Shown: positions 2,114 through 60,420 of the stretch, piece by piece
Position numbering within the stretch: the stretch's first letter is position 1
Layout: every line of letters starts with the position of its first letter
Source of the DNA: Polyangiales bacterium
Lineage (GTDB): Bacteria > Myxococcota_A > Polyangia > Polyangiales > Polyangiaceae
DNA: 64,000 nucleotides
Assembly: GCA_038231275.1 (NCBI GenBank)
Contig: JBBRLQ010000031.1
Span: 1-64,000 of the forward strand
Reading direction: 5' to 3'
Translations under genes and position numbers: made by a program
The notes under the pieces: generated by a model
What the model was told of the DNA's origin: nothing
What the model saw: only the letters and a program-made list of their open reading frames with translations
The model's database searches: none

Positions 2114-2178
2114 CCATTTCCTCGTTTTTCAGGCCTCGCGCACTTGCGCGACGACCCTCGCGGCCCAATTCTAGGGCC

Positions 2179-2224
2179 CTTCCCGGTCTTCCCGGTCTTC
2201 CCGGTCTTCCCCGTCTCTCCCGGT
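2179..2224. repeat. 9-bp tandem repeat (CTTCCCGGT)x3 plus two degenerate copies, immediately upstream of mutS2
   Basis: Perfect copies at 2179, 2188 and 2197; degenerate copies at 2206 and 2215. Confidence 0.85.
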
Positions 2225-2229
2225 TCACC

Positions 2230-4623: not shown

Positions 4624-4709
4624 CGCGCCGTACGACATTCGGGTCGTGCCCGCCGCGCACGAACGTACACTGTAAACCTGGAAGTCACGCCATTCGCGAG
4701 CGTGCGACA

Positions 4710-4725
4710 CGGCATGCCCATTGCT
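4710..4725 (+). promoter_or_regulatory. Putative sigma54 (-24/-12) promoter
   Basis: CGGCATGCCCATTGCT matches TGGCACG-N4-TTGCW with exact GG/GC spacing, 57 bp upstream of the next ATG. Confidence 0.6.
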
Positions 4726-4781
4726 GAGGGAGCCGCAGTCCCTGACGGCTCGTGACCCCTTTCTTTTTCGAGGTTTTCCCA

Positions 4782-5267
4782 ATGCTATGGAAATTTGCGC
4801 GTCGGTCGATTGTGGCGACCCGCTTGCTCGCGGGCGCTGGCGTCCTCGCGACCTTCGCCGCCTGCACGCATTCGACACCGTCGAGTGCGGCGTCGGCGTG
4901 CAACACGGATCCCTTCTCATGTGGCCCCGGAAAGACGTGCTTGGGCCCTTTAGGCTCCATCGCCTCCGGCGGGCTGACCTTCGTCTACGAGTGCGTCGCG
5001 AGCGGCACGGGCAAGGAGGGCGACACGTGCCAGGACACGTTCGGGACACCGGACGCCACGACGTGTGGAGAGGGTCTGTACTGCTACCAGTCGCAGTCGC
5101 GTCCCGGACCCGCGCGGTGCGTCGCCTTTTGTGATGCCGCGCACGCCTGCGCGTCGCCGAGCGCCGCGTGCTCGTCCTACCCGGGCGATGGGAGCATGCC
5201 CAGCGTTCGCGTTTGCCTCGACCCGAGAGTCCCTGCGGATGCAGGAGCCGCCGACGCGTCGAAGTGA
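4782..5267 (+). CDS. Cys-rich secreted lipoprotein
   Basis: Signal peptide ending in FAAC lipobox; many paired Cys; DAG-type tail. Confidence 0.7.
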   Translation: MLWKFARRSIVATRLLAGAGVLATFAACTHSTPSSAASACNTDPFSCGPGKTCLGPLGSIASGGLTFVYECVASGTGKEGDTCQDTFGTPDATTCGEGLYCYQSQSRPGPARCVAFCDAAHACASPSAACSSYPGDGSMPSVRVCLDPRVPADAGAADASK

Positions 5268-5307
5268 CGGCGGCACGACCGAGGGTCAGCTGCGCGAACG
5301 CGGGGCC

Positions 5308-8034: not shown

Positions 8035-9008
8035 ACGCTCTCCTCATGCGCGGCCGGTTGGGTGCGGACGCTCTTCGCCACCGCGAGGCCCCGCCCATCG
8101 CCGCGCGAGTCGGGCTCGATGAAGATCTTGCGCATCTGCGGCATCACCGAACGGATGCGGCGCTCCATCTCGTTGATGGTCTCCTCGACCTCCTCGACCT
8201 CCATCTTGGCGCGGAAGGCGACCTTCATCGAGAGGATGATCTCGTCGGGACCGAGGTGCATCGTGAGGATCTGCGTGATGCGCGCGACGCCCGGCGTACC
8301 CTCGGCGATCTCGATGACGCGGCCCTGCTCCTCCGGCGCGGCGCTCTCGCCGATGAGGAGGCCGTGGGTGATCTTGGCGAGCGCGTAGGCGACCGTGCAC
8401 AGGAGCGCGCCGATGATGACCGAGCCTAGAGAGTCCCAGATCTCCATGCGGGTCAGCTGCGACAGGCCGACCGCGATGAGCGCGACGGTGAGGCCGGCGA
8501 GCGCCGTCGCGTCCTCGGCGAGGACGAGCGGGATCGTCGGGTCGCGCGTCTCCATGATCGCCTGGCGCCAAGATTTGCCCTTCAGCATCACGCGGAACTC
8601 ACGGAAGGCGACGCGGAAGCTGAGGCTCTCGAAGAGGAACGACACGCCGAGGACGCCGTAGCTCCACAGCGGCGAGCCGACGTGGGTTGGGGGCGTGAGC
8701 ACATGGCTGATCCCGTCCCATATCGCGAAGGCGCCGCCGACAGAGAAGAGGATGAGCGCGACGACGAACGGCCAGAAATATTTCTCGGTCGCGCGGCCGA
8801 AGGCAAAGCGATCGTCGGCGGGCCTCGCGGCGAGGCGCAGCCCAACCAGCAGAAGGGCCTGGTTGCCGGTGTCGGCGAGCGAGTGCACTGCCTCCGCGAG
8901 CGTCGAGGTCGATTCTGACATGTACGCCGCGCCGAACTTGCAGATCGCGATCGCGATGTTGCCGACGAGCGCGGCGACTACGACCTTCTTGCTGTCGGCG
9001 CCGCTCAT
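8031..9008 (-). CDS. Cation diffusion facilitator family transporter
   Basis: EAVHSLADTGNQ and LAEDATA metal-site helices, about six TMs, C-terminal dimerisation domain (IFIEPD). Confidence 0.9.
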   Translation of the reverse strand: MSGADSKKVVVAALVGNIAIAICKFGAAYMSESTSTLAEAVHSLADTGNQALLLVGLRLAARPADDRFAFGRATEKYFWPFVVALILFSVGGAFAIWDGISHVLTPPTHVGSPLWSYGVLGVSFLFESLSFRVAFREFRVMLKGKSWRQAIMETRDPTIPLVLAEDATALAGLTVALIAVGLSQLTRMEIWDSLGSVIIGALLCTVAYALAKITHGLLIGESAAPEEQGRVIEIAEGTPGVARITQILTMHLGPDEIILSMKVAFRAKMEVEEVEETINEMERRIRSVMPQMRKIFIEPDSRGDGRGLAVAKSVRTQPAAHEESV

Positions 9009-9009
9009 G

Positions 9010-9732
9010 TCACTTGCCGGCCGGGACGCTGACGATCTTCACGCGGGTGCGCGCGGCTTGCAAGAAGCCGCTCTCCGCCTGGCGGAGGCGCTCGCCGACG
9101 AGCCATCGCTGGAAGCGCTCGCGCACGTCGTCGAGCTTCTGGCCCTTGTAGGGGTGCGCGTCGGTGCGGAAGACCTCTCGGATTTCCTCCTCGGTCGGGC
9201 GCAAGATCGACGTGACCGAGCGATCGACGTAGATCGCCGCGCGGACCTGCCTCTTGAGGAGGGCCTCGACCTCCGTCTCTTCGATGCCCTCGGCGGCCAT
9301 CGCGGCGGAGAACGGCGCTTGACCGCCGACCCGATCGACGAGCGAGACGCGCGCGCGACGGACGAGGCCGGGGAGATCGCGCGGGTCGGCGCCGTGCTCG
9401 ACCATGAGCGTGGCGAGGAGCTCTTCGGCGACGTGGCGCTCGGTGGCCGCGCGGACGTGGCGCTCCTGGTAGGGACCGGCGTTGCCGAAGGTGCTGTCCT
9501 CACCGAGCGCCTCGAGGCGCGACTCGAAGGCGAGCTCGCGCTCGGTGATGAAGCGAGGCCGCGACGAGCCGCCGGTCTCGGGAGACCAGAAGCGAACCGC
9601 GATGCGATCGACGGACGCGCGCGCCGCCGGCGGCTCTTGTGCCGACGCCGGCCCGGCGCCCGCGGCGAGGAGCGTCAATGGCATCAGACCCGTCAGAAGA
9701 CGCGCCCGAAGGACGCGGCGAACCGCGCTCAC
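9010..9732 (-). CDS. Exported hypothetical protein, possibly SurA N-terminal-like
   Basis: GTG overlaps the upstream TGA (GTGA); signal peptide ending ASA; VDRIAV...ITEREL resembles the SurA N-terminus. Confidence 0.65.
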   Translation of the reverse strand: MSAVRRVLRARLLTGLMPLTLLAAGAGPASAQEPPAARASVDRIAVRFWSPETGGSSRPRFITERELAFESRLEALGEDSTFGNAGPYQERHVRAATERHVAEELLATLMVEHGADPRDLPGLVRRARVSLVDRVGGQAPFSAAMAAEGIEETEVEALLKRQVRAAIYVDRSVTSILRPTEEEIREVFRTDAHPYKGQKLDDVRERFQRWLVGERLRQAESGFLQAARTRVKIVSVPAGK

Positions 9733-10622
9733 GTCCCCTGTCCCCCGCCCTCTCCTTCGGCGGTGAGCTTGGTGCCACGAACGCTCGCGGCCGCGGCCTC
9801 GATGCGCTCCTGCATCTGGTGTTCGTGGTGGTGCGCGAAGCCGCGGGCGGCGCGGCGGGCCTTCAGGAACTCGGCGAACGAGACGAGCGTCTCGAGCTCG
9901 CGCGGACCGAGCCCTTCGGCGAGCTCGCGCAGGTGCTGGCGGCTCGCCTCGGCGTTGCGCGTGCGGCGACCGCTCGCCGATTTGGGACCTTCGCCGTCTA
10001 TCCCGGCTGCTGCGTTGGCCGCGGCGGCGGCGGCGAGCGCGGCGCTCGAGACGCTCGGCGAGCTGCCACGATCGGAGAACGGCCCGAGGCTGTCGGGCGC
10101 CGCGTCTTCGGCCGACGGAGGGCCGTCTCCCCACGTGGGTCGCGGCGTCGCCTTGATCGCGTGCGCGTTGAGCCACGCCTCCATGAAGGTACGAAGGCGC
10201 TCGCTGCGAAACTGGAACCAGCGCTCACGCTCCGTCGCGAACGACATGAGCACGTCCTTGAACCGCCGGAACGCCCCCTTGCCGTCGATGGCCTGGGTCA
10301 GCTTCCCGCGCAGGTCGAGATCCTCGACCATCGGGATGAAGCGCTCCATCCAACGGTACTGCTCGCGCGAGCTCACCGGATCGATGCGGAGGTAGTTGCC
10401 GTCGGACGCGATGCGCACGTGCATCTGCGGATCGGCTACGCCGTCGACGACGCGCAGCACTTCACCCGTCGTCAGGTGGAGGTACGAGTGCACCTCCGGC
10501 GCGTTGTTCTCGAAGGCGTCCTCGAGCGCCTCCCAGTCGACAGGCACGTCGCGGATCGGTCCCGTGGGGACGGCCGCCGTCTGAGACCCTGCACTGGCGT
10601 GCGAGGGATCCTTTTGCGTCAT
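9729..10622 (-). CDS. UPF0158 family protein
   Basis: YLHLTTGEV, YRWMERFI, AIDGKGAFRRFKD, WFQFR...AWL motifs; SD GGGAG upstream of the ATG. Confidence 0.85.
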   Translation of the reverse strand: MTQKDPSHASAGSQTAAVPTGPIRDVPVDWEALEDAFENNAPEVHSYLHLTTGEVLRVVDGVADPQMHVRIASDGNYLRIDPVSSREQYRWMERFIPMVEDLDLRGKLTQAIDGKGAFRRFKDVLMSFATERERWFQFRSERLRTFMEAWLNAHAIKATPRPTWGDGPPSAEDAAPDSLGPFSDRGSSPSVSSAALAAAAAANAAAGIDGEGPKSASGRRTRNAEASRQHLRELAEGLGPRELETLVSFAEFLKARRAARGFAHHHEHQMQERIEAAAASVRGTKLTAEGEGGGQGT

Positions 10623-10876
10623 AGTCTCTCCCTTCGAAGCAGAGAAGCGGCAGGACCTCGAAGAGAGGCGCCTGCTCCATGGAAAGAAAGTCGAACGTCG
10701 ATCTCGCGTGCGCGATGCCTTCGGCGGGCTGGGCCGAACGAAACGTGACGCGCCAGGTTCTCGGATTTCGATGCCGTGGACCCGGACCATGTAGCGTCGC
10801 ATGGCGCGAGCCTCTCTGGAAGAGGGTGTCGCGGCCTTGTGCGACATCGTCACACAAACCTCTTCTGGAAGCCTCC

Positions 10877-11869
10877 TCAGGAAGGAGCCGCCTGGCCGCG
10901 CCTCCAGACGAGGAGCACGGTCGCGCCGATCGCGACCCAGATCATCTGCATGACGTGGACGAGGAGGGCGATCGACATCGCCACCGCCACGGTCGTGCCG
11001 AGGGGCACCGCCGAGGCCGCAAAAGCTCCGTCCGCGGCGCCGAGCTGTCCCGGCACGAGGACCCCCAGCGCGAGTGCGATCATGTTGATGCCCTGCGCGT
11101 AGAGGACCCGCGCGACCGAGAGATCCACCCCGACGGCGTGCGCGAGGACCGCGAAGACGCCGATCTGGAAGACTCGGCCGACGAGCATCGAGAGCGTCGG
11201 CCCGCGCGGAAGGAGCGCGACGTCGCGCGACGCGGTGCGGAACTCCACGAGGCTCACGCCGAAGCGGCGCGCGATGCGGGTGCCGAGCTCGCTCTGCCCG
11301 CGCGCCGCGGCGCGGATGGCCACGCCACACACCGTCAGGATCGCGGCCTGAGCGAGGAGGGCGAGGGTGACCGCCGAGACGCCCGTGATCGAGAACGCCG
11401 CGATCGCACACGGAACGGCGACGATGCCCCCGACGACGAGGGTGACTGCTTGGTTCGTCGCCCCCGCCGCGATCGCGGTCGGGACTCCTGCGTAGCGGCC
11501 CAACATCGCCACCTTCACGGCCTCCGACGACGTTCGCCCCGCCGGCATCACGCCGGCCACCGCGTAGCCGACGATCTGCGCGCGTACCAGCATCGACCAC
11601 GGCAAGAGGTGGCCACGCGCGCCGTACGCGTAGTACGTCGCGAGCGCTTCGGTGCCGATGCGCGCGCTGTCGAGGAGGAGGACCACGGGGAGCCATCGCC
11701 ACGCCGGCCGGAGCACCCTCTCGATCACGTCGGGTCCGGTGCTGCGAACCATGAACGCCACGACCGCGAGGCCCGCGAGGCCCGTGACCACGCGCACGAT
11801 CGCCGCGGTGTAGCGTCGGGTCGGCGCCGAGCCTTGCGGGGATGGCGGGGATGGATCGGCGGTCGCCAC
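10877..11869 (-). CDS. Lysylphosphatidylglycerol synthase TM-domain (flippase-like, UPF0104) membrane protein
   Basis: Multiple TMs, MPAGRTSSEAVK and VPGQLGAADG motifs; start uncertain. Confidence 0.7.
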   Translation of the reverse strand: MATADPSPPSPQGSAPTRRYTAAIVRVVTGLAGLAVVAFMVRSTGPDVIERVLRPAWRWLPVVLLLDSARIGTEALATYYAYGARGHLLPWSMLVRAQIVGYAVAGVMPAGRTSSEAVKVAMLGRYAGVPTAIAAGATNQAVTLVVGGIVAVPCAIAAFSITGVSAVTLALLAQAAILTVCGVAIRAAARGQSELGTRIARRFGVSLVEFRTASRDVALLPRGPTLSMLVGRVFQIGVFAVLAHAVGVDLSVARVLYAQGINMIALALGVLVPGQLGAADGAFAASAVPLGTTVAVAMSIALLVHVMQMIWVAIGATVLLVWRRGQAAPS

Positions 11870-11919
11870 GAAGCCGCGATGATGAACCGCGCGGAGATTT
11901 TGCGCTAGGATGTCCGCCC

Positions 11920-13188
11920 ATGCCGCGCGCTCGAACGATCTTCGCTCTCCTCGGCGGCGCCGGCGCGCTGGCCGGTTGCACCTCAATCCTCGGATCGTTC
12001 GATCAGGCGACGATCGGCGACGCGAACGCCCAAGACGGCGCCGTTTCGGACGTGCTCGGTCCTCCGAGCGACACCGGAGCCGGCGGCAAGGATGGCGCGA
12101 CGACGGGCGACGCGGACGACGGCGCGACGCCTCCGCTCGTCTGCACGCTCCCCCTTGTCGCGTGCGGGAGCGGCGCCTCCGCGGCGTGCGTAAATCTCGA
12201 CACCTCGCCCGACAACTGCGGCGCGTGCGGTCACTCGTGCGGCGGGGGGCAGTGCCTCCAGAGGCGCTGCCTCCCCTCGATCGTCTACCAGGGCACCACC
12301 GTAGGTCCCATCGCGCAGGACCTCGCCGACGTCTTCTTCGAGTCGAACGAGGATCCGTCTTTCAAGCTCCTCGCATGCCCCAAGGCTGGCTGCGTCGGCG
12401 CGCCGCGGCAGGTCACGATCATGCCGTTCTCGATCAACGCCATTCATGTGCCCGCGCCGCAGACGCTCGCATTCCTGTCGGCGCCGCAGAACGGGAGCGG
12501 CACCGAGCGCCCCGCGGTGTTCTCGTGCGCGACGACCGGGTGCCCGAGCCCACCGGTCTCGTTCGTCGCCGACGGGCTCAACGGAATCCAGGCGCGGCTT
12601 CGCTCCGCCAGCGGTGCGCTCTACGGCGTCACTGGCGGGACTGGCCTCTTTTCGACCACCTGCACGACCGGAGCCTGCGCGACGCCGGCGTCGTTCTTCG
12701 GGCCGCTGACGAGGGGCGTGCACGGCTTCGCACCGACGCAGGCGCTCGTCTACTTCATCGACGCGGCGTCGCGTGGCGGCGCAATCTCGAAGTGCGCCGC
12801 CGGCGACACGGCGTGCGCTCCGGTGATCCTGGTGCCCGGCGACGCGAGCCTCGTCGAGTCGCTCAGCGTCTTCAACGCGAAGCTCTTCTGGCTCGCCCCC
12901 GGACGCGCGGGCTTCAACGAGGGCAAGCTCCTGTCGTGCGATTTGCCGGCGTGCACGACCGTCGCGCCGCAAGCGACCGCGATCGACTCTCCCACCGGGC
13001 TCTTCGTCGACGCCAGCGGCGCGTACTGGTTCACCGCGGGGAACAAGCTCCAGCACTGCGCGGCGAACGGCTGCGTCGGCGGGCAGCAGGATCTGGTGCT
13101 GACCCTGGACACGCCGCACGACGTCATCGCCGACGACACGTTCGTTTATTGGGCCGAGAAGACGAAGATCTCGCGCATCGCGAAGTAG
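11920..13188 (+). CDS. Cys-rich lipoprotein with beta-propeller-like repeats
   Basis: LAGC lipobox; DNCGACGHSC myxobacterial Cys motif; repeated C-x4-C units and D-x-x-x-VYW propeller-like blades. Confidence 0.75.
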   Translation: MPRARTIFALLGGAGALAGCTSILGSFDQATIGDANAQDGAVSDVLGPPSDTGAGGKDGATTGDADDGATPPLVCTLPLVACGSGASAACVNLDTSPDNCGACGHSCGGGQCLQRRCLPSIVYQGTTVGPIAQDLADVFFESNEDPSFKLLACPKAGCVGAPRQVTIMPFSINAIHVPAPQTLAFLSAPQNGSGTERPAVFSCATTGCPSPPVSFVADGLNGIQARLRSASGALYGVTGGTGLFSTTCTTGACATPASFFGPLTRGVHGFAPTQALVYFIDAASRGGAISKCAAGDTACAPVILVPGDASLVESLSVFNAKLFWLAPGRAGFNEGKLLSCDLPACTTVAPQATAIDSPTGLFVDASGAYWFTAGNKLQHCAANGCVGGQQDLVLTLDTPHDVIADDTFVYWAEKTKISRIAK

Positions 13189-13194
13189 GTCACG

Positions 13195-14679
13195 TCACCG
13201 CGAGCGCGTTCGTGCGACCGCGTCCTTCCACTGCGCGAGGTGCGCCTCGCGGGCCTTCGCGGGCATCGCGGGCGCGAAGCTGCGTTCGAGCTTGAGCATC
13301 TTCGCGGCGCTGCTCACCTCGCATAGCCCTGCGCCGACGCCGGCGAGCATCGCGGCGCCGCGGCCCGTCGACTCGATCTCGGTGGGCCTCTCGACGGCGA
13401 CCGACGCAACGTCGGCCTGGAACTGCATGAGCAGATTGTTGGCCGACGCGCCGCCGTCGACGCGCAGGCGCGAGAGCGGCCGGCCTGCGTCGGACGTCAT
13501 CGCGGAGAGGAGGTCGTGGACCTCTAGCGCGATCCCTTCGAGCGTCGCGCGCGCGAGGTGGGCCGCCGTCGTGCCACGCGTGATCCCGGTGATGGCGCCG
13601 CGCGCGCCTTGATCCCAATACGGGGCGCCGAGCCCAGCGAGCGCGGGGACGAACGAGACGCCGTCCGAAGAAGGCACCTTGCGCGCGAGCTCCTCGATGT
13701 CCTTCGCGGTGCGGATGATCCCGAGGCCGTCGCGAAGCCACTGCACCGCGGCGCCGGCGATGAAGGCGCTCCCTTCGAGCGCGTACGTCGTCTTGCCGCC
13801 GATGCGCCACGCAACTGTGGTGACGAGGCCGTTCTTGCTGAGCACCGGTCGCTCGCCGATGTTCATGAGCGCGAACGCGCCGGTGCCGTACGTGCACTTC
13901 GCGTCGCCCTCGGCGAAGCACGCCTGGCCGAAGAGCGCGGCCTGCTGATCTCCGGCAATGCCGGCGATCGGAATTCCGTCCGGCAAAAACCCCGCTCCCT
14001 TCGTGCGCGCGACGATCTCCGCGCTGCCGACGATTTTGGGGAGGACGGCGGCGGGCACGCGAAAGGTCGCGCAGAGCTCGGGATCCCACTCGCAGCGCGC
14101 GAGGTTCATCAAGAGCGTGCGCGATGCGTTCGTCACGTCGGTGACGTGCGCCTCGCCGCTCGTGAGCTGGCTGACGAGGAACGAGTCCACCGTACCGAAC
14201 GCGAGCTCTCCTGCTTCGGCGCGCGCGCGGGCGCCCGGCACCTGATCGAGGATCCACGCGATCTTCGTGGCGGAGAAATACGCGTCGACGACGAGGCCGG
14301 TCTTCTCGCGAATGCGCGGCTCCTTCCCCTCGCGCTTCAGCTGATCGCACACGTCGGCGGTGCGCCGGCACTGCCACACGATCGCGCGGTAGATCGGCGC
14401 GCGCGTCTTGCGATCCCACACCAGCGTCGTCTCGCGCTGGTTGGTGATGCCGATCGCCGCGATGTCGCTCCCCTTCACCTTCGCCGTCGCGAGCGCCGCC
14501 TCGCACGAGGCCTGGACGCTCTTCCAAATGTCGCTCGGATCGTGCTCGACCCAGCCGGGCTTGGGGAAGTGCTGCGGGAACTCGACGTTATGTCGTCCCA
14601 ACGTCCTTCCGTCGTCCGTGACGACGAGCGCGGTCGAGCCGGTTGTCCCCTGATCGATGGCGAGGAGGTACTGTCCCAT
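13195..14679 (-). CDS. glpK: Glycerol kinase
   Basis: [53 protein letters not shown] motifs. Confidence 0.97.
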
Positions 14680-49822: not shown

Positions 49823-50377
49823 ATGAGGTTATCCAAGACGGCGCGGCGCATCGCGCTGGGCTCGATACTGGCAGCGACGGCCATCTCGGTGTCGGGTACG
49901 GCGCTGGCGGCGTTCCAGGCGCACATCTCGATCAAGGGAAAGAAGCAGGGGCAGTTCAAGGGGGAGGGCCAAGACAAGCGCAAGGACAAGTGGATGCCGG
50001 TCCTCTCGCTCTCGTTCGGCGTCAAGTCCCCGCGCGACACCGCCACCGGCCAGGCCACCGGCAGGCGCCAGTACGAGCCGGTGTGCTTCACGAAGGAGGC
50101 GGGCAGCGCGACGCCGCAGATCCTGACCGCGGTCGCCACCAACGAAGTGCTCTCCGAGGTGAGCTTCGAGCTCACCAAGGCCGGCCCGGGCGGCGAAGAA
50201 TATGTCTACCAGACGATCAAGCTCACCGACGCGACGGTCTCCAGCGCGCGGCAGCACATGGAAGCCGCGCCGACCAAGGGGCCCGTCGACGAGGTCTGCT
50301 TCACGTTCCGCAAGATCGACGTCGAGAACAGGGACGGCAAGACCTCCTACGCCGACGACTGGACCGCGACGCCGTGA
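49823..50377 (+). CDS. hcp: Hcp/TssD-family tube protein with an N-terminal Sec signal peptide (orphan)
   Basis: SD GAGGAG; signal ending ALA; IKGKKQG.FKGE, SPRD.ATGQATGRRQYEP..FTK...ATPQ, NEVL, I.LTDA.V, FTFRKI, DDW. Confidence 0.88.
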   Translation: MRLSKTARRIALGSILAATAISVSGTALAAFQAHISIKGKKQGQFKGEGQDKRKDKWMPVLSLSFGVKSPRDTATGQATGRRQYEPVCFTKEAGSATPQILTAVATNEVLSEVSFELTKAGPGGEEYVYQTIKLTDATVSSARQHMEAAPTKGPVDEVCFTFRKIDVENRDGKTSYADDWTATP

Positions 50378-50414: not shown

Positions 50415-51170
50415 CTAGAACCGCTCTTTCGGCTCCTCTTTGCTCAACACCTGCACGTTCGGCAGAACCTCTTTCGCGAACCGGTCGCGCACGTCTTTCG
50501 CGCGGGGCTCGTCGTCGCGCGAGGGGATCGCGACGCCCACGACAAGGCACGCCTCCTTCCCCCATACCGGGTAGGTTCCATACGCCGCCGCGTACGACTC
50601 ACGCGACGCCATGGTGGCCGTCCTCGCCATCACGGGATCGATGTCGATCGGCACCGGCGCGATCTTCGCGCCCCCGGGCACCTTGTTCCACATGACCGCG
50701 ACCGGCGCGTCGTGCTTCAGCTCGACGTCGAACGCTTCGAGCATCGGCGTCGCCAGCACCTCGAAGCTCTTCGCGCACGCGCCCTGTACGCTGTTGTCCT
50801 CCACGTGCGTGATGAACGCCGCGACGATCGCGTGATGATCCTTGCCGTAGCGGAAGCCCACGAGGCTCGGCACGCCCCAGAACCGAACGCGCATCCAATG
50901 CTCCGCGTCCGGGAGCGGCACGCGAATGCTGTTCTGCTTGTCGGTGCGGCCGTCGCTCACGCCGATCTTGAGCTGCTCAAGCGCCGCCGAGTGCTCGCTC
51001 CCGCCCTTGCCCTTGTCGCCGTTCGCGGTCGACCCGTCGTCCTTCGGAGGCGGCGCGGCCATGACCACGCGCAGCGGTTGCGTGGACGAGCTGCACCCGA
51101 CCGCCGCGAGCGCCGCGAGCACCGCCGGAAAAAAAGCAATCGTTGCGGCGGCTCGCGTCATCTCCTTCAT
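50415..51170 (-). CDS. Hypothetical lipoprotein
   Basis: AVGC lipobox; good codon bias; no family recognised. Confidence 0.65.
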
Positions 51171-51279
51171 CTTGGACGAAACACCGCCCCGGCGCATTCC
51201 AATCTTGGCGACAAGTTGGCGGCCTGGGGTGCGTTCGGGGCGATTTTGCGGTAAAGCCGTGGCTCAGGAAAACCCCATC

Positions 51280-53076
<1,797 letters not shown>

Positions 53077-53111
53077 CGCGCCTGTCGAAATCGCGTTAGC
53101 CTAGCGCGTCG

Positions 53112-55109
53112 ATGGCCACTGCTGCCCGTCCTTCCGGGTCCGACGCGCGTCTTCTCTCGGCGCTCGAGCGGGCGTTCGCGAAGCACGCAGGCGCCGATGG
53201 GGTCATCGACGTCGCCGAGCTGAAGAGGGCGCTGGGGCTACGGAGCGAGTACCTGGCGCGGCGCGTCTTGACGGCGTTCGATCTCGACGGCGACGGCGTC
53301 ATCAGGAAGGACGAGTTCCTCGAGGGCGTGCGCAAGCTTTGCCTCGGGAGCGACACCGAGAAGCTCATGTTCGCGTTTCGTCTCCATGACCACGACGGGG
53401 ACGGGACGCTGAGCCGTGACGAGCTCTTTCGCATGATCGCGATCGGGCTCGCCGAGAACGACGTGGCCGAGCGCGCGACGCAGCCGCCCGACGCGCTCGC
53501 CAAGGCGCTCTTCAACATGGCGGACACGAACAAGGACGGGAAGATCTCGTTCGAGGAGTTCGAGGCCGTCGTACGGCGGCGGCCGGCGCTGCTCGAGAAG
53601 ATGACGCGCAGCGAGGCGGTGTGGATCGCACCGAACGAGGATCTGCTCGTCTGGCTCGACCCGCACCAGGCGCGCGAATCGCGGTTCTCTCGCCTGCTCG
53701 AGAACGGGTGGGCGCCGGTCGTCCTCTTGGTCCTCTGGGCGGCCGTCAACGTCGGCCTCTTCGTGAACGCGATGATTCGCGGCGCGCACGACGGCGCGAA
53801 CCCCATCAACCAGGCCGGCCGCGCGCTCGGCGCGTGCATCAACTTCGACGGCGCGCTCCTCCTCTTCCCGGTGATGCGTCGCCTCCTCACCTGGGTGCGC
53901 TCGACCTGGCTCGGCCGCGCGATCCCGGTCGACGAGGCGATCACGTTCCACCGCATCGTCGGGCACACGCTGGTGGCGCTCGGCGTCGCGCACGGCACTG
54001 CGCTCTTGGTGAGCTACGGAATCGGACACCGGAGCGGCTCTGTCGAGCACCTCCTCTTCGTCACCGAGCGCGGGCTCACCGGCGTCGGGCTCCTGATCGT
54101 CATCTTCGTGATGTGGGTCTTCGCGCTCGCGCTCGTGCGCAGATCGGCCAAATTCGAGCTCTTTTACTTCACGCACCTCCTCTACGTGGTGTGGTTCGCC
54201 CTCGCGATCGCGCACGCGCCGCAGTTTCTGTTCTGGGCCGGCGTGCCGCTGCTCGGCTTCGTCATCGAGCAGATCTTGCGCCTCGCGCGGCGCGGAAAGA
54301 AGACGGTCGTTGCCGGCGCGCAGGCGCTGCGGTCCGGCGTGACGCGCCTCGAGCTGTCCAAGCCGAAGGGCTTCGCGCACCGGGCCGGCGACTATGTCTT
54401 TCTCCGCATCCCCGAGATCGCCAAGCACGAATGGCATCCGTTCACCGTGTCGAGCGCGCCGGAGAACGAGACGCTCACGGTCCACGTCCGCACGCTCGGC
54501 AACTGGACGACCGCGCTTCGGACCCGCGTAGAGCGCGACGAGGCGACGCCCGGTGGAGCGCAGCTCGTCGCGTTCGTCGACGGCCCCTACGGTTCGCCGA
54601 GCGCGCACATCGAGCGGTCGCGCCACGCGGTCTTCATCGGCGCGGGCATCGGCGTGACGCCGTTCGCCGCGGTGCTCGAGAGCCTCGTGCGCCGCGAGAC
54701 GAGCGCGCACCCCTCGAAGCTCGAGAAGGTGCATTTCTTTTGGCTCAACAAGGACCAATATTCGTTCGAGTGGTTCGCCTCGCTCTTGAAGGAGCTCGAG
54801 AAAATCGACGAGAAGGCGCTCCTCGACATCCACCTCTGCATGACCGCGGGCCGCACCGGCGCCACGGCGCTCGCCCTCGAGGTCGCGCGCGAGATCCTCC
54901 ACGCGTCGGGGCGCAGCGACATCATCACCGGCCTCCGAACGCACACTCACATGGGCCACCCCGACTGGGAGAAGATGCTCGGCGCGATCAAAGTGCAGCA
55001 CGCGCCGAACAAGGTGGACGTGTACTTCTGCGGCCCCGTCGGGCTCGCCAACAAGATCCGCGTCGTGAGCCAGCACCTCGGCATGAGCTTCCGCCGGGAG
55101 CAGTTCTGA
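53112..55109 (+). CDS. EF-hand-containing NADPH oxidase (NOX5/RBOH-like ferric reductase superfamily)
   Basis: Four EF-hands; 6-TM heme-b domain with H280/H294 and H355/H368; HPFT, DGPYG, GAGIGVTPF, FEWF, FCGP, C-terminal EQF. Confidence 0.93.
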   Translation: MATAARPSGSDARLLSALERAFAKHAGADGVIDVAELKRALGLRSEYLARRVLTAFDLDGDGVIRKDEFLEGVRKLCLGSDTEKLMFAFRLHDHDGDGTLSRDELFRMIAIGLAENDVAERATQPPDALAKALFNMADTNKDGKISFEEFEAVVRRRPALLEKMTRSEAVWIAPNEDLLVWLDPHQARESRFSRLLENGWAPVVLLVLWAAVNVGLFVNAMIRGAHDGANPINQAGRALGACINFDGALLLFPVMRRLLTWVRSTWLGRAIPVDEAITFHRIVGHTLVALGVAHGTALLVSYGIGHRSGSVEHLLFVTERGLTGVGLLIVIFVMWVFALALVRRSAKFELFYFTHLLYVVWFALAIAHAPQFLFWAGVPLLGFVIEQILRLARRGKKTVVAGAQALRSGVTRLELSKPKGFAHRAGDYVFLRIPEIAKHEWHPFTVSSAPENETLTVHVRTLGNWTTALRTRVERDEATPGGAQLVAFVDGPYGSPSAHIERSRHAVFIGAGIGVTPFAAVLESLVRRETSAHPSKLEKVHFFWLNKDQYSFEWFASLLKELEKIDEKALLDIHLCMTAGRTGATALALEVAREILHASGRSDIITGLRTHTHMGHPDWEKMLGAIKVQHAPNKVDVYFCGPVGLANKIRVVSQHLGMSFRREQF

Positions 55110-55768
55110 TGCGTGTGCGCGCGCTCGAGATCGTGCTCGGCCTGACGGTGCTCTTCGGCGCGGCGAGCGCGGGGTGCCAGGGCACGGTCGTCGCCGCTGC
55201 CGATGGGGACGGCGGCACGAAGGCCATGGGGCCTTCGTGCGCGAGCTGCCACATGGCCGACTACCTCCAGGTGAGGACGCCGCCGCACGAGGGCGTGAAG
55301 CCGACCGCGTGCGCCGTGTGCCATACGCAGACCGGCTGGCATCCTTCTGTGCTCGATCACCCGTGGCCGCTCACCGGCAAGCACGAGAAGACCGACTGCT
55401 TTCTCTGCCACAAGGACAAGCCGCCGGTCTTCAAGGGGACGAAGAAGGCCTGCTACGCGTGCCACGCCGCCGAGTACGACAAGCCACCGTTCGCCGATCA
55501 CATGCTCTTCCAGAAGGCGTGCGAGGAGTGCCACACGACGACGGACTGGAAGACGCTCGTGCCGCACCCGATCTGGCCGCCGGAGCCGGCGAAGGAAGAG
55601 GACGCGGGCGCGCAGCACGACGCCGGCCACGCCGAGCCGCACGACGCCGGCGCGGGGGTCAAGCCGAAGCCAAAGCCGCCGCCGCCCAAGCCGACGGGCT
55701 CACCGACGACGCCGCCAACGGGCAAGCCGCCGGACGTGACGACCGGCGGGAGTCGGCACGGTCGGTAG
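55109..55768 (+). CDS. Pentaheme c-type cytochrome lipoprotein
   Basis: ATG overlaps the NOX stop (TGATG); SAGC lipobox; CASCH, CAVCH, CFLCH, CYACH, CEECH; Pro/Lys-rich tail. Confidence 0.9.
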   Translation: MRVRALEIVLGLTVLFGAASAGCQGTVVAAADGDGGTKAMGPSCASCHMADYLQVRTPPHEGVKPTACAVCHTQTGWHPSVLDHPWPLTGKHEKTDCFLCHKDKPPVFKGTKKACYACHAAEYDKPPFADHMLFQKACEECHTTTDWKTLVPHPIWPPEPAKEEDAGAQHDAGHAEPHDAGAGVKPKPKPPPPKPTGSPTTPPTGKPPDVTTGGSRHGR

Positions 55769-55777
55769 CGCGTTCGA

Positions 55778-55999
55778 TCACGCCGCGCGCTTGATGCAGC
55801 AAGCCCAGCGCATGCCGTCCTGCGACGTGAAGTCGACGTGCCTGTCCGTGTCGTAATACGGCACGATGTGGAGGCGGCCCGGGCGCGGAAGGAAGGGGAC
55901 CTCGATGCCAAGCATGGAGCCGGGGACACCGACCAGGACCGGCGGGATGACCTGCTCGGCCAGCTCGTTGCGCATCCAAAAGTGCCTGAGCATCATCAT
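55778..55999 (-). CDS. Small hypothetical protein (73 aa)
   Basis: Strong GC3 codon bias from MMMLRHFW to WACCIKRAA. Confidence 0.5.
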   Translation of the reverse strand: MMMLRHFWMRNELAEQVIPPVLVGVPGSMLGIEVPFLPRPGRLHIVPYYDTDRHVDFTSQDGMRWACCIKRAA

Positions 56000-56099
56000 G
56001 GGCGACTGACGCCACCCGACCGACGTTGTCGCACCGAAAAACGACGCGATTGAGACTCCGCGGAGGCGCGGCGAGAACCCGCGTCTTTCGGGGCAGTTG

Positions 56100-56594
56100 C
56101 TAGCGTTTGCTCCGCGCAGCTGCCTTCTTCGGCGCGGGCTCATTGGCCGCGGCCTTCTTGGGGGCCGGCTTCTTCTTTGGCGCGGCGGCCACCTTCGCCG
56201 GGGCCGCGATCGCGCGCTTCACGGTTGGCTTCGCCGCCTCGACGCGCGCCGGGCCCTTCTTCGACGCGGTTTGCGCGAGGGCGTGCGCTCTTCGGACCCA
56301 GGCGCCGAGGCGCAGGCCGTCGCCGTGCATCACGGCGGGCAAGAGCACCCAGTGGCTCATCGTCATGGTTCCGGCGACCCACGGCGACGCGCCCGGCATT
56401 TTCATCGCCTCCGAGTAGGCGATCTCGTTCGGCAGGCGGACGCCGATGCGCCCGAGCTTCCACACGAGGCCGAAGATGTTCCCGCTGGCGAAGAGGCCAT
56501 CGCACCCGAACATGCGTTTCTTGGACACCCCCGCGAGCCCATTGGCCGCGGCGTCCAGCACCGCCGCGAGCTCGTCGAGCGAAACGTCTGCCAA
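56100..56594 (-). CDS. TfoX/Sxy N-terminal domain protein with Lys/Ala-rich tail
   Basis: KRMFG..GLF..G.IFG motif, MSHWV; SD GGAGG before the TTG. Confidence 0.78.
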   Translation of the reverse strand: MADVSLDELAAVLDAAANGLAGVSKKRMFGCDGLFASGNIFGLVWKLGRIGVRLPNEIAYSEAMKMPGASPWVAGTMTMSHWVLLPAVMHGDGLRLGAWVRRAHALAQTASKKGPARVEAAKPTVKRAIAAPAKVAAAPKKKPAPKKAAANEPAPKKAAARSKR

Positions 56595-56764: not shown

Positions 56765-57232
56765 ATGGAACCGTCCACCTCGTTCCTCGTCCCCGTTTAC
56801 GGCGCGTATGCCCTCGTCAGCGTCACGCTGACCATCTTCCTCGCGCGGACGCTCTTCAAGAACGGCGCGGTGTTCCTGGAGGACGTCTTCAAGGACACGC
56901 CGAAGATGGCCGACGCCGTGAACCACCTGCTCGTCGTCGGGTTCTACCTGCTGAACCTCGGCTACGCGTCCCTCATCATGAAGGCCAACGGCGGCACGAC
57001 GGTCATCGCGGCGGTCGAGGTGCTCGCGTGGAAGCTCGGCGCGCTGCTCATGTCGCTCGGCGTCATGCACTTCCTGAACATGTACCTCTTCTACCGGATC
57101 CGTCGGCGCGCGCGGATCGCCGTTCTGCCGCCGCCCGTCGCGCCGCAGATGCGCCTGCCCAACGGGAGCGGTGGGCAACCGTTTCCGAACGCGGCCGAGC
57201 CCGTGCACGCGTGGCGTCCGCAGAGGGCGTGA
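56765..57232 (+). CDS. Small integral membrane protein
   Basis: SD AAGGAGG; three TMs; NG.VFL.DVF...ADAVNHLLVVGFYL.NLG. Confidence 0.85.
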   Translation: MEPSTSFLVPVYGAYALVSVTLTIFLARTLFKNGAVFLEDVFKDTPKMADAVNHLLVVGFYLLNLGYASLIMKANGGTTVIAAVEVLAWKLGALLMSLGVMHFLNMYLFYRIRRRARIAVLPPPVAPQMRLPNGSGGQPFPNAAEPVHAWRPQRA

Positions 57233-57233
57233 C

Positions 57234-57665
57234 GTGGACTCCCTCTTGGTCCTCTACGACGAGCGCTGCGCGCTTTGTATTCGATGCCGCGACTGGCTGA
57301 TGCGGCAAAGGAGCTTCGTGCCGCTCGGCTTCCTCGCGTGCGGCTCGCACGAGGCGCGCAATCGCTACGGCGCGGTGCCGTGGCTCGGCGAGGAGCTCGT
57401 CGTGGTGAGCGACGATGGGGACGTGTGGGTCGGCCCCGCCGCGTTCCTCGTCGCGCTCTGGGCGCTCGAGGAGTGGCGCGAGTGGTCGTACCGCCTCAGC
57501 GGCCCCGAGCTCGCGCCGCTCGCCGAGCGGTTCTTTCACGCGATCAGCGGCAACCGGCGCGCGATCGCGGCGCTCCTCAAACCGGATCCGTGCGCGGGAG
57601 GCACGTGTAAGCTCCCGGCCGGCCACGCGGCGCCTCAGCACGCGCCGCGCGCCGCCTACCGATGA
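57234..57665 (+). CDS. DCC1-like thiol-disulfide oxidoreductase (DUF393)
   Basis: VLYDERCALC (DxxCxxC) N-terminal motif. Confidence 0.8.
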   Translation: MDSLLVLYDERCALCIRCRDWLMRQRSFVPLGFLACGSHEARNRYGAVPWLGEELVVVSDDGDVWVGPAAFLVALWALEEWREWSYRLSGPELAPLAERFFHAISGNRRAIAALLKPDPCAGGTCKLPAGHAAPQHAPRAAYR

Positions 57666-58348
57666 CGGACACGAAGAAGGCGACGCCGAAGAAGCGAGAG
57701 CTCACGCGCGAGAAGATCCTCGCGAGCGCGCTCTCGCTCTTTCGGCGTCGCGGCTTCGAGAAGACCACGATGCGCGACGTCGCGCGCGCGGCGAAGGTGG
57801 CCTTGGGCGCCGCGTATTATTACTTCCCTTCGAAGGAGGCGCTCGTCCTCGCCTACTACCACGACACGCAGGACGAGCACTCCCGGCGCGCGCGCGCGGC
57901 GATGGCCAAGGAGCCGACCTTGCGAGCGCGCCTCGGCGCCGTCATGCACACGAAGCTCGACGTGCTGGAGCGCGACCGCAAGCTCCTCGGAGCGATCTTC
58001 CGCAGCGTCGCCGATCCCGACGATCCGCTCAGCATCTTCGGTGCGACGTCCCGCGGCGTGCGCGAAGAGAGCCTCCAGCTCTTCGAAGACGCGCTCTCGA
58101 CCTCCCCCGACGCCGCCGGCGCGATGCTCGAGCCGGAGACGCGGCGCATCGTGTCGCGCGCTCTCTGGGGCCTGCACATGGGCCTCCTCCTCTATTACCT
58201 GCACGACGCCTCACCGGCTCAGGAAAAGACGCGCGCGCTGACCGACGGCGCGCTCGACCTGGCCGTGCAGCTCGTCTCGGTGGCGCCGCTTCTCGGCGGG
58301 CTCACCGATCCGCTGGCCGGGCTGCTGCGCGACGCAGGGCTCACCTGA
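57662..58348 (+). CDS. TetR family transcriptional regulator
   Basis: GFEKTTMRDVARAAKVALGAAYYYFPSKEAL HTH. Confidence 0.92.
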   Translation: MTDTKKATPKKRELTREKILASALSLFRRRGFEKTTMRDVARAAKVALGAAYYYFPSKEALVLAYYHDTQDEHSRRARAAMAKEPTLRARLGAVMHTKLDVLERDRKLLGAIFRSVADPDDPLSIFGATSRGVREESLQLFEDALSTSPDAAGAMLEPETRRIVSRALWGLHMGLLLYYLHDASPAQEKTRALTDGALDLAVQLVSVAPLLGGLTDPLAGLLRDAGLT

Positions 58349-58426: not shown

Positions 58427-59716
58427 ATGGCGAGCCTCCCCAACAAGAGCACCTGGCCGAGGCGCATCCCCTGGATCGCGCTGCTCCTCGCCATCGTCGG
58501 AGGCGGCGTCGCGTACTGGCGCTACGTGCTCGCGCACCCGCCGCCGCCCATCACGTACAAGACCGCGCCGCTGGAGCGCCGGAAGATCACCGGGCGCGTC
58601 ACCGCGAGCGGCACGCTGCAGGCCGTCGTCACCGTGCAGGTCGGCACCCAAGTATCGGGGCGCCTCCAGAAGATCAACGTCGACTTCAACTCGCAGGTAA
58701 AAAAGGGCGAGCTGCTCGCGAAGATCGATCCCCAGCTGGTCCTGGCGAACGTCGCGCAGGCGCACGCCAACTACGTCTCGGCGCTCGCCGGCGTCGTCCA
58801 GGCAGAGGCGAAGTCGCGCGACGCCGAGCGCGTGTACAAGCGAACGAAGGCGCTGAACGAGCAGAACCTGGCCCCCCTCGCCGACGTCGAGACCGCCGAG
58901 ACGAGCCTCGCGGTCGCCAAGGCCGGAATCGACGTCGCGAAGGCGTCGCTCGAGCAGTCGAAGGCGCAGCTGAACCAGACCGAGGTGAACCTCTCGTACA
59001 CCAGCATCTTCTCGCCGATCGACGGCGTCGTGATCTCGCGCAGCGTCGACGTCGGGCAGACCGTCGCGGCGTCGCTCCAGGCGCCGGTGCTCTTCACGAT
59101 CGCCGAGGACCTACGCAAGATGCAGGTGAACACGAACGTCGCCGAGGGAGACGTCGGTCGCCTCGCCCCCGGCATGGCGACGTACTTCACGGTCGATGCG
59201 TTCCCCGGCCAGCGGTTCAACGGGAAGATCTCGCAGATCCGGAACGCGGCGCAGACCGTCCAGAACGTGGTCACGTACGACGCGGTCGTCGACGTCGACA
59301 ACTCCGATCTGAAGCTGCGCCCCGGCATGACCGCGAACGTGACGGTGATCTTCGATTCGCGCGACGCGGCGCTCGCGATGCCAAACGCCGCCATGCGCTT
59401 CAAGCCGCCGCCCGCGATGCTCGGCGCGTCGAGCGCATCCAGCGCGGCGGCAGCGCCGACCGGCAGCGGCTTGGGCCAGGGCGGGCAGCGACGACAGCGC
59501 GGCGAGAAAGAGACCGACACGCGCACCGTCTGGGTGCTGCACGGCAACGCGGCGACCCAGGTGACGATCAAGCTCGGCCTCTCCGACGGAACCGTCACCG
59601 AGGTCGTGAGCGGCGACGTCAAGGAGGGCGACCTCGTCGTCACCGACGCGACCTCCGCGACCGGCGCGCCCACAGCGGCCGGCGCCAGCCCGGTGCGCGC
59701 GGGCAGGATGTTCTGA
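58427..59716 (+). CDS. MacA-like efflux periplasmic adaptor subunit
   Basis: TM, VGTQVSG...VKKGELLA, SPIDGVV, LRPGMTA. Confidence 0.92.
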   Translation: MASLPNKSTWPRRIPWIALLLAIVGGGVAYWRYVLAHPPPPITYKTAPLERRKITGRVTASGTLQAVVTVQVGTQVSGRLQKINVDFNSQVKKGELLAKIDPQLVLANVAQAHANYVSALAGVVQAEAKSRDAERVYKRTKALNEQNLAPLADVETAETSLAVAKAGIDVAKASLEQSKAQLNQTEVNLSYTSIFSPIDGVVISRSVDVGQTVAASLQAPVLFTIAEDLRKMQVNTNVAEGDVGRLAPGMATYFTVDAFPGQRFNGKISQIRNAAQTVQNVVTYDAVVDVDNSDLKLRPGMTANVTVIFDSRDAALAMPNAAMRFKPPPAMLGASSASSAAAAPTGSGLGQGGQRRQRGEKETDTRTVWVLHGNAATQVTIKLGLSDGTVTEVVSGDVKEGDLVVTDATSATGAPTAAGASPVRAGRMF

Positions 59717-60420
59717 TGGCCGAGCCGCTCATCGAGCTGACCGATCTCACGAAGATCTACGTCACCGGCGACGTCGAGCTGCACGCGCTCGACGGCGTGT
59801 CGCTCACGATCACCGAGGGGGAGTTCGTGGCGATCATGGGGTCGAGTGGCTCCGGAAAATCCACGATGATGAACGTCATCGGCTGCCTCGATCGCCCGAC
59901 CCTCGGCACCTATCGCCTCAGCGGTCGCGAGGTCAGCGGCATGAGCAAGAGCGATCTCGCCGAGGTCAGAAACCAGCTCATCGGCTTCGTGTTCCAGCAG
60001 TTCAATTTGCTCGCGCGCACCAGCGCGGTCGAGAACGTCGAGCTGCCCCTCGTCTACGCCGGCGTCGGCTCGCGTGAGCGACGGCGGCGCGCCACCCACG
60101 CGCTCGAGCGGGTCGGCCTCAGCCAGCGCCTCGAGCACCACCCCAATCAGCTCTCGGGCGGCCAGCAGCAGCGCGTCGCGATCGCACGCGCGCTCGTCAA
60201 CGAGCCCAAGGTCATCCTGGCAGACGAGCCCACCGGCGCGCTCGACTCCAAGACGAGCGTGGAGGTGATGGCGCTCTTCCAGGAGCTCTGGCACGCGGGG
60301 ATCACCGTCGTCGTCGTCACCCACGAGCCCGACATCGCCGCGTACGCATCGCGCGTCGTCGTCATGCGCGACGGCAAGGTCCTCTCCGACGAACGCCACG
60401 AGCCAGAAAAGGCGGCGTGA
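59716..60420 (+). CDS. ABC transporter ATP-binding protein (MacB/LolD-like)
   Basis: [26 protein letters not shown]. Confidence 0.95.

Follow-up and report, generated by a model that had tools for sequence, protein, structure and literature searches.

Oxidases of the NOX family transfer electrons from reduced nicotinamide adenine dinucleotide phosphate (NADPH) via flavin adenine dinucleotide (FAD), an inner haem and an outer haem to O2, and in human NOX5 the acceptor site is exposed by short extracellular linkers, as described in PMC11088703. In the 64,000-nucleotide stretch of Polyangiales DNA analysed here, the window, a gene for a NOX5-like protein is directly followed by a gene for a pentahaem c-type cytochrome, a pair to which an earlier note on this DNA had drawn attention and which was confirmed in every particular. 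We read the pair, with a probability of roughly 60 %, as a putative Ca2+-gated NAD(P)H:cytochrome c transmembrane reductase that derives from NOX5 and in which the acceptor would have shifted from O2 to a dedicated cytochrome.

Four N-terminal EF-hands, a six-helix domain with two b haems in HX13H and HX12H motifs, an FAD/NADPH domain and a terminal Phe are shared with human and cyanobacterial NOX5. Unlike the protein of the window, both of these keep the His of the O2 centre; here a hydrophobic residue takes its place, a Gly-His pair stands in loop C and a multihaem cytochrome gene is obligately linked. SpNOX of Streptococcus pneumoniae and other bacterial NOX without EF-hands are likewise built of a ferric reductase domain (FRD) and a dehydrogenase, with an exposed outer haem. 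SpNOX, however, is constitutively active and, in the parts of the literature drawn on here, comes without an identified partner, whereas the enzyme of the window has a putative cognate cytochrome in the same predicted operon. In vitro and under anaerobic conditions, the outer haem of SpNOX passes electrons directly to cytochrome c, the horse or bovine cytochrome c being an assay reagent in that work, and its authors considered that physiologically the electrons may go to something other than oxygen, perhaps to a protein as in MsrQ-MsrP (PMC11564096, PMC5676040). Protein acceptors for bacterial NOX are, with these two articles, already in print as speculation. In MsrQ-MsrP, by the same accounts (PMC11564096, PMC5676040), a haem-b membrane protein of the FRD type passes electrons to a dedicated periplasmic protein. 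In contrast to the enzyme of the window, MsrQ has neither a fused dehydrogenase nor EF-hands, and its partner MsrP is a molybdoenzyme, not a cytochrome. MsrQ draws its electrons from the quinone pool or from the cytosolic flavin reductase Fre.

Multihaem cytochromes c beside inner-membrane proteins with two HX13H motifs, as in the ferric-reductase domain, are known from the porin-cytochrome clusters PCC3 and PCC4 of Fe(II) oxidisers; the clusters serve extracellular electron transfer, and the membrane proteins were proposed as quinone-active cytochromes b (PMC5566968). They lack an NAD(P)H domain and a Ca2+ sensor, and the cluster includes a porin, whereas no porin is conserved beside the pair described here. 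The cytochrome itself resembles the class III cytochromes c7/c3 and those of the NrfH/MtrC type in its densely packed CxxCH haems, for most of which His is the probable distal ligand, but it packs five haems into ~100 residues, followed by a Pro-rich tether and a private motif or by a three-haem domain. The statement of the earlier note that no NOX with a dedicated multihaem cytochrome partner is known agrees with our searches of the full-text literature, in which no description of one was found, subscription journals lying outside their coverage.

The pair and the domains of the enzyme occupy the following positions of the window:

53112..55109, plus strand: NOX5-like gene, 665 amino acids and stop codon (open reading frame, translation, Pfam, match to solved structures)
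53139..53606, plus strand: cytoplasmic EF-hand regulatory region, residues ~10-165, with one degenerate and three canonical Ca2+ loops
53694..54287, plus strand: transmembrane ferric-reductase domain, residues ~195-392 (Pfam Ferric_reduct, hydropathy)
54300..55106, plus strand: cytoplasmic dehydrogenase domain (FAD_binding_8, NAD_binding_6; HPFT, GAGIGVTPF, FCGP, C-terminal Phe)
55107..55111, plus strand: TGATG stop/start overlap (sequence)
55109..55768, plus strand: pentahaem c-type cytochrome gene, 219 amino acids and stop codon, product probably a lipoprotein (translation, Pfam Cytochrome_C7)

The translation of the NOX5-like gene, ending in FRREQF, scored over the Pfam gathering scores for EF-hand_7, EF-hand_1, EF-hand_6, Ferric_reduct, FAD_binding_8 and NAD_binding_6. 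EF-hand pairs cover residues ~29-156 (EF-hand_7 at 1.3e-22, EF-hand_1 at 2.4e-21, also EF-hand_6, EF-hand_5 and EF-hand_8), Ferric_reduct residues 258-365 (43.1 bits), FAD_binding_8 residues 402-497 and NAD_binding_6 residues 507-651. Hits and loop residues match the arrangement read earlier from the sequence, four N-terminal EF-hands with the first degenerate and three canonical. In the loops, D57, G62, D93 and G98 are invariant among 49 members of the clade defined below, and D95, D97, E104, D138, D142, G143 and E149 are at least 90 % conserved; because the loops are conserved, the EF-hands would retain Ca2+ control. The NOX-type His spacing, H280-H294 and H355-H368, is present as claimed: transmembrane helix (TM) 3 has HX13H and TM5 HX12H, H280 and H355 bind the inner and H294 and H368 the outer haem, and all four His are invariant among the homologues. 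The other motifs named in the earlier note (GRALGACINF, HPFT, DGPYG, GAGIGVTPF, FEWF, FCGP and the terminal Phe) were all found in the translation, invariant or nearly so in homologues, with HPFT, GAGIGVTPF, FCGP and F665 conserved among clade members. Its reading of the junction and of the second open reading frame (ORF) held as well: in TTC TGA TGC the stop codon of the NOX5-like gene (55107..55109) and the ATG of the cytochrome gene (55109..55111) share an A, and the 219-residue product contains the five CxxCH motifs CASCH, CAVCH, CFLCH, CYACH and CEECH.

The top solved relative of the NOX5-like protein is human NOX5 (E 2.7e-116, in two stretches spanning residues 10-665), followed by DUOX1, chains titled 'Putative ferric reductase' and NOX2. 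Among the chains of this title, 5o0x and 8cak, which represent the dehydrogenase domain, match the dehydrogenase region at 248 bits, and 5o0t is the membrane-domain chain. We take 5o0t and 5o0x to be the cyanobacterial NOX5 of Cylindrospermum stagnale, the PDB titles giving only 'Putative ferric reductase'. In NCBIfam, neither the NOX5-like protein nor the cytochrome was above any family cut-off.

An alignment of ten homologues, used as query against 185,579 species-representative genomes, gave 239 confirmed relatives, the best 80 of which were compared as loci with at most 4 kb of flank per side. Directly downstream and on the same strand, 53 of the 80 loci have an ORF with five (43 loci) or eight (10 loci) CxxCH motifs, and in all 53 a candidate start codon of the cytochrome lies -13 to +9 nucleotides from the last NOX codon. 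The TGATG overlap is present in 22 of the 53 linked loci; in the others the two genes meet to within a few bases or the start is a TTG that lies in TTTTGA. At two loci (L023, L029) the downstream DNA is only 329 and 229 nucleotides long, yet it already encodes the beginning of a cytochrome, with signal peptide, first and second CxxCH motif. With four loci too short to score (L054, L088, L089, L093) and 21 of the 80 without such a cytochrome ORF despite 1.6-4 kb of downstream sequence, the linked loci amount to 55 of 76 informative ones, a strongly positive outcome of the test proposed in the earlier note, namely how often a CxxCH-rich gene follows EF-hand ferric-reductase homologues. The genomes of the relatives, sampled separately, gave the same linkage picture. 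The pairing is not by chance. Since no other neighbour is conserved, the commonest other ORF family occurring in 4 of 41 linked loci with full flanks, the NOX and the cytochrome gene form the unit.

The nearest loci to that of the window come from metagenome-assembled genomes (MAGs) of Polyangiaceae/Myxococcales. All six cyanobacterial NOX5-like loci, 41-42 % identical to the NOX of the window, are without an adjacent cytochrome gene. NOX matches were found in 9 of 41 genomes (40 relatives and the genome of the window) at E <= 1e-10 and in 8 of 401 phylum-wide genomes at E <= 1e-30, so the enzyme is patchy in the phylum. Two genomes (G037, G199) contain both a linked and a cytochrome-less NOX paralogue, which fits different jobs of the two types. 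An apparent NOX-cytochrome fusion, an 898-residue open frame at locus L015, was rejected as an alternative open frame in high-G+C DNA; its junction is the same TGATG. In two genomes (L016/L021 in G174, L007/L012 in G025) the NOX5-like gene seems split into two overlapping ORFs, one frame holding the EF-hands and another the membrane and dehydrogenase domains. An assembly error, a frameshift or a pseudogene could explain this; the G174 locus nevertheless has the five-haem gene downstream. At a single locus (L033), a cytochrome-less NOX5-like gene (3977-5986) that kept the O2-centre His is divergent from an 811-residue ORF with ten CxxCH motifs (1543-3978, minus strand), and a further frame with nine motifs lies upstream.

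A maximum-likelihood tree was calculated for 78 NOX sequences, after removal of L067, which is a C-terminal fragment, and of L047 and L072, whose translations have a frameshift in the membrane domain. One branch parts all linked sequences together with L023, L029 and L093 (55 rows) from the other 23, supported by an ultrafast bootstrap (UFBoot) of 98 and an SH-like approximate likelihood ratio test (SH-aLRT) of 88 in the careful search and an SH-aLRT of 87 in the quick search. A single change of state suffices to explain the cytochrome linkage, and no readable downstream region inside the clade is without the cytochrome. When the six cyanobacterial sequences are taken as outgroup, the linked clade falls inside the myxobacterial NOX5-like genes that have no cytochrome; as the tree is without eukaryotic NOX5 and ferric reductase (FRE) sequences, its root rests on this outgroup. 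The MAGs of clade members are labelled as Polyangiaceae, Sandaracinaceae, Labilitrichaceae, Myxococcaceae and others, and the identity to the window falls within the clade to ~50 % for the NOX and to 34 % for the cytochrome.

Two sites on the outer side of the membrane domain separate this clade from its cytochrome-less relatives most directly:

54003..54005, plus strand: Leu298, four residues after the outer-haem ligand His294, at the position of NOX2 His119
54024..54029, plus strand: Gly305-His306, a pair invariant in the clade and specific to it, in loop C, which joins TM3 and TM4 on the periplasmic side

When 52 alignable linked NOX sequences were contrasted column by column with 20 cytochrome-less ones, 15 positions told the two groups apart. 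Hydropathy, together with the EF-hand and dehydrogenase domains being known to lie inside, assigns ten of the 15 to the periplasmic half of the membrane domain: loop A (224), the outer end of TM2 (236, 238), outer TM3 (298, 301), loop C (305-308) and outer TM5 (366). At position 298, His is found in 17 of the 20 cytochrome-less sequences and also in human NOX5, but in 0 of the 52 linked ones, which have Phe (34), Leu (7), Ile (4), Val (2), Tyr (2), Met (1), Ala (1) or Thr (1) instead. Gly305-His306 is present in 52/52 linked sequences, and His occurs at this place in 0/20 cytochrome-less ones. The polarity of the His change is identical under any root outside the linked clade. In the cryo-EM description of NOX2, His115, His119 and Arg54 next to the outer-haem propionate form the putative O2-reduction centre (PMC9568551). 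His119 is listed as one of four positions that part NOX forming reactive oxygen species (ROS) from metalloreductases, and mutations of it in NOX2 lead to chronic granulomatous disease (PMC3591440). Judged from these alignment columns, the acceptor side of the enzyme is rebuilt on the branch on which the cytochrome gene appeared. The loss of the His and the linkage have both been held since without exception, which adds weight.

The cytochrome gene encodes the following parts:

55109..55177, plus strand: putative signal peptide with a weak lipobox SAGC, last residue Cys23 (sequence; conservation of Cys23)
55238..55534, plus strand: compact five-haem core, residues 44-142, with the non-motif His60, His84 and His92 and a His near residue 131
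55556..55726, plus strand: Pro/Thr/Lys-rich low-complexity linker (sequence)
55727..55765, plus strand: conserved C-terminal motif PPDVTTGGSRHGR, family consensus P-D-[VI]-x-[TS]-x-[AP]-S-R-R

The N-terminus MRVRALEIVLGLTVLFGAASAGC has the shape of a signal peptide and a weak lipobox (A-S-A-G-C compared with L-[AS]-[GA]-C). Cys23 is at least 90 % conserved in 51 cytochrome homologues, most of which have L-x-[AG]-C, and the cytochrome is probably a lipid-anchored lipoprotein. In the alignment of the 51 cytochromes, all 15 Cys and His residues of the five CxxCH motifs are invariant, as are Pro65, Trp77, His84, Gly90 and His92; His60 is at least 90 % conserved, and a His near residue 131 is seen, by eye, in most rows. 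With three or four conserved distal His, one of the five haems may have a different or external sixth ligand. The linker is 64-133 residues long with a Pro fraction of 0.11-0.36 in most five-haem homologues, linker and tail are missing from a few five-haem versions, and the C-terminal motif is retained in most long-tailed cytochromes. Eight-haem versions, which are found at two or three places of the clade, have an extra three-haem domain behind the linker. The tail motif was also considered as a general sorting tag in this genome; this is argued against by the lack of a second convincing copy at ORF ends among 16681 ORF-like segments.

By family, the cytochrome belongs to Cytochrome_C7 (28.3 bits, cut-off 24.8), which was matched by 51/51 homologues at E <= 0.01, with Cytochrom_c3_2 matched by 42 and Cytochrom_CIII by 27. 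A profile search of the PDB gave weak matches and no close solved relative, the nearest being NrfH (E 2.9e-5) and then MtrC (~0.007-0.05). Relatives of similar length in a collection of 5.8 billion proteins (31) are unnamed or annotated as hypothetical or c7-like, and matches in the ESM Atlas were to generic c7-like clusters only, with scores <=0.89. AlphaFold2, run on 51 sequences and without haems, gave a poor model of the cytochrome (mean pLDDT 64, pTM 0.27); with this haem-less model (pLDDT 64), Foldseek found no match in the PDB at E <= 10, and a wide VIA-align search found only collagen peptides (Z 2.3) on the Pro-rich tail. In a profile search the haem module was also found repeated inside large polyhaem ORFs, whereas the whole cytochrome profile including the tail was covered by NOX-adjacent copies only. 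The genome of the window itself has such a cluster (contig C2, ~602,000-611,300, L102): three minus-strand ORFs at 4112..5212, 8843..10033 and 10045..13314 with 10, 14 and 21 CxxCH motifs, whose modules match the profile of the NOX-linked cytochrome at E values down to 2.6e-35. This cluster could be a downstream electron conduit or merely a paralogous family. The genome has three matches to PF01578, a cytochrome c assembly family.

As a Ca2+-gated cytochrome c reductase the pair would work as follows. Binding of Ca2+ to the cytoplasmic EF-hands would switch on the NOX5-derived enzyme, and electrons would flow from cytoplasmic NAD(P)H via FAD and the inner haem b to the outer haem b. The outer haem would reduce the dedicated periplasmic c7-like pentahaem cytochrome, which would replace O2 or be strongly preferred over it, and the cytochrome would in turn hand the electrons to a periplasmic or more distal acceptor. 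Translational coupling may keep the cytochrome in fixed proportion to the enzyme, and through its Pro-rich tether and the family-specific motif at its C-terminus the cytochrome may dock to the enzyme or to a further partner. The b haems of NOX and haems of the c7/c3 type have compatible low potentials. The putative contact of the two proteins was modelled with NOX residues 185-400, two haems and cytochrome residues 24-219; the resulting ipSAE of 0.00/0.01, obtained without controls, is evidence neither way.

Several observations weigh against a dedicated protein acceptor. The equivalent of NOX2 Arg54 (R237) is still Arg in 46/52 linked sequences, and the Thr-Gly pair of TM4 is kept, with T323 at least 90 % conserved and G324 invariant in the clade; these equivalences (T323-G324 to Thr178-Gly179) were inferred from the position in TM2 and TM4 and the alignment to NOX5. 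With Arg and Thr-Gly retained, the enzyme may still reduce some O2, and an O2 site could in principle be re-formed by the invariant His306 gained in the clade. The loss of the His and the gain of the cytochrome share a single branch and so count as one event, not as 52. Three cytochrome-less sisters (L069, L073, L092) have also lost the O2-centre His and gained no cytochrome. Finally, the polyhaem ORFs that share the haem module occur in four genomes (G016, G026, G027, G036) in which the NOX query found no homologue, so members of the cytochrome family are not confined to NOX partners. At the three sister loci, the Arg54 equivalent is Asp, Gly or Ser and the His119 equivalent Arg or Ala, and no co-directional partner gene is in view.

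The retained Arg and the Thr-Gly pair would be at home in an enzyme that still forms superoxide. The nearest solved relative is a true NADPH oxidase, and cytochrome c is a classic superoxide acceptor, used as such in the assays of PMC5676040, so the cytochrome might act downstream of ROS, as a superoxide relay, in detoxification of the periplasm or in a redox signal, and not as the direct acceptor of the outer haem. We consider this unlikely. The O2-centre His, whose mutation in NOX2 causes chronic granulomatous disease (PMC3591440), is missing in all linked sequences, a diffusible intermediate needs neither a remodelled periplasmic face nor an invariant Gly-His in loop C, and a scavenger is less typically coupled to an enzyme in translation, strictly one to one, than a subunit is.

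The absence of His119 is also the signature of FRE (PMC3591440), and a weak ferric reductase activity of SpNOX was observed in vitro (PMC11564096). The enzyme might accordingly have reverted to a ferric or metal reductase of the FRE type, with an outer haem that reduces chelated Fe(III) or a small oxidant and a cytochrome that serves as electron buffer or as second outlet in iron acquisition. Against this, the clade is nested in EF-hand NOX5-like proteins and not among FRE, in a tree without FRE sequences, the Thr-Gly pair of TM4 is kept and no iron-uptake gene is conserved beside the pair. A small-molecule acceptor would leave the never-lost cytochrome unexplained, and such a reversion appears improbable. 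More improbable still is that the gene order is kept for the co-regulation of two independent periplasm-facing functions or that the module runs in reverse, from cytochrome to NAD(P)H: binding is hypothetical and the cytochrome module family is also found without NOX, but the pair shows no loss in the clade, the stop/start overlap is kept, the periplasmic face changed along with the pairing, and an inward flow to NAD(P)+ would be uphill in potential and opposed by the membrane potential.

The reading as a Ca2+-gated reductase with a dedicated cytochrome may be extended, speculatively, to the first NOX-family enzyme with a hard-wired protein acceptor, Ca2+-gated and quinone-independent, in which His306 is an inter-protein sixth ligand and the tether relays electrons outward. 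We regard this extension as doubtful. His306 would ligate a haem for which the cytochrome seems to lack a sixth ligand, and the electrons would run via the tether and the private motif toward the outer membrane or an extracellular acceptor. The same tentative extension would give a chain of seven to ten haems, from NAD(P)H via FAD and two haems b to five or eight haems c, and a Ca2+ signal would let myxobacteria start, within milliseconds, to reduce acceptors outside the cell or to form ROS at a distance.

Upstream of the pair, a gene for a GTP-dependent phosphoenolpyruvate carboxykinase (PEPCK_N and PEPCK_GTP, ~51256..53076, plus strand) ends 35 nucleotides before the start of the NOX5-like gene. 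It was rejected as a member of the module, as the adjacency is without conservation at related loci. Farther upstream stands alone a gene for a type VI secretion protein of the Hcp family (49826..50377, plus strand; T6SS_HCP 3.2e-26) with a signal-like N-terminus. Convergent with the cytochrome gene is one for a TfoX_N protein with a long basic Ala/Lys/Pro-rich C-terminal tail (56100..56594, minus strand). A gene for a DCC1-like thiol-disulfide oxidoreductase (57171..57665, plus strand) then overlaps by 4 nucleotides with a TetR-family gene (57662..58348, plus strand; product with TetR_N and TetR_C_23), followed at 58427..59716 and 59716..60420 by ABC genes labelled by eye as HlyD/MacA-type and MacB-type. 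The G+C content is even across the region. Scans of 50800..56300 gave no promoter-like site and three terminator-like sites compared with 3.2 expected; both are uninformative in DNA of 68 % G+C.

For the question which proteins may accept electrons from a bacterial NOX, the clade offers a natural, genetically defined answer in one lineage, with enzyme, putative cognate acceptor and 55 sequence pairs. Cytochrome-less paralogues with the O2-centre His intact, in some cases from one and the same genome, are built-in controls, and the switch from His to Phe or Leu together with the loop-C Gly-His presents directly testable determinants of acceptor choice. If the reading as a Ca2+-gated cytochrome c reductase is true, NOX chemistry would not be limited to the reduction of O2, and bacteria would export electrons of cytoplasmic NAD(P)H across the membrane under direct Ca2+ control, bypassing the quinone pool. 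This would be relevant to redox signalling in myxobacteria, which are social and predatory, to extracellular electron transfer and to the way in which the ROS-forming NOX evolved.

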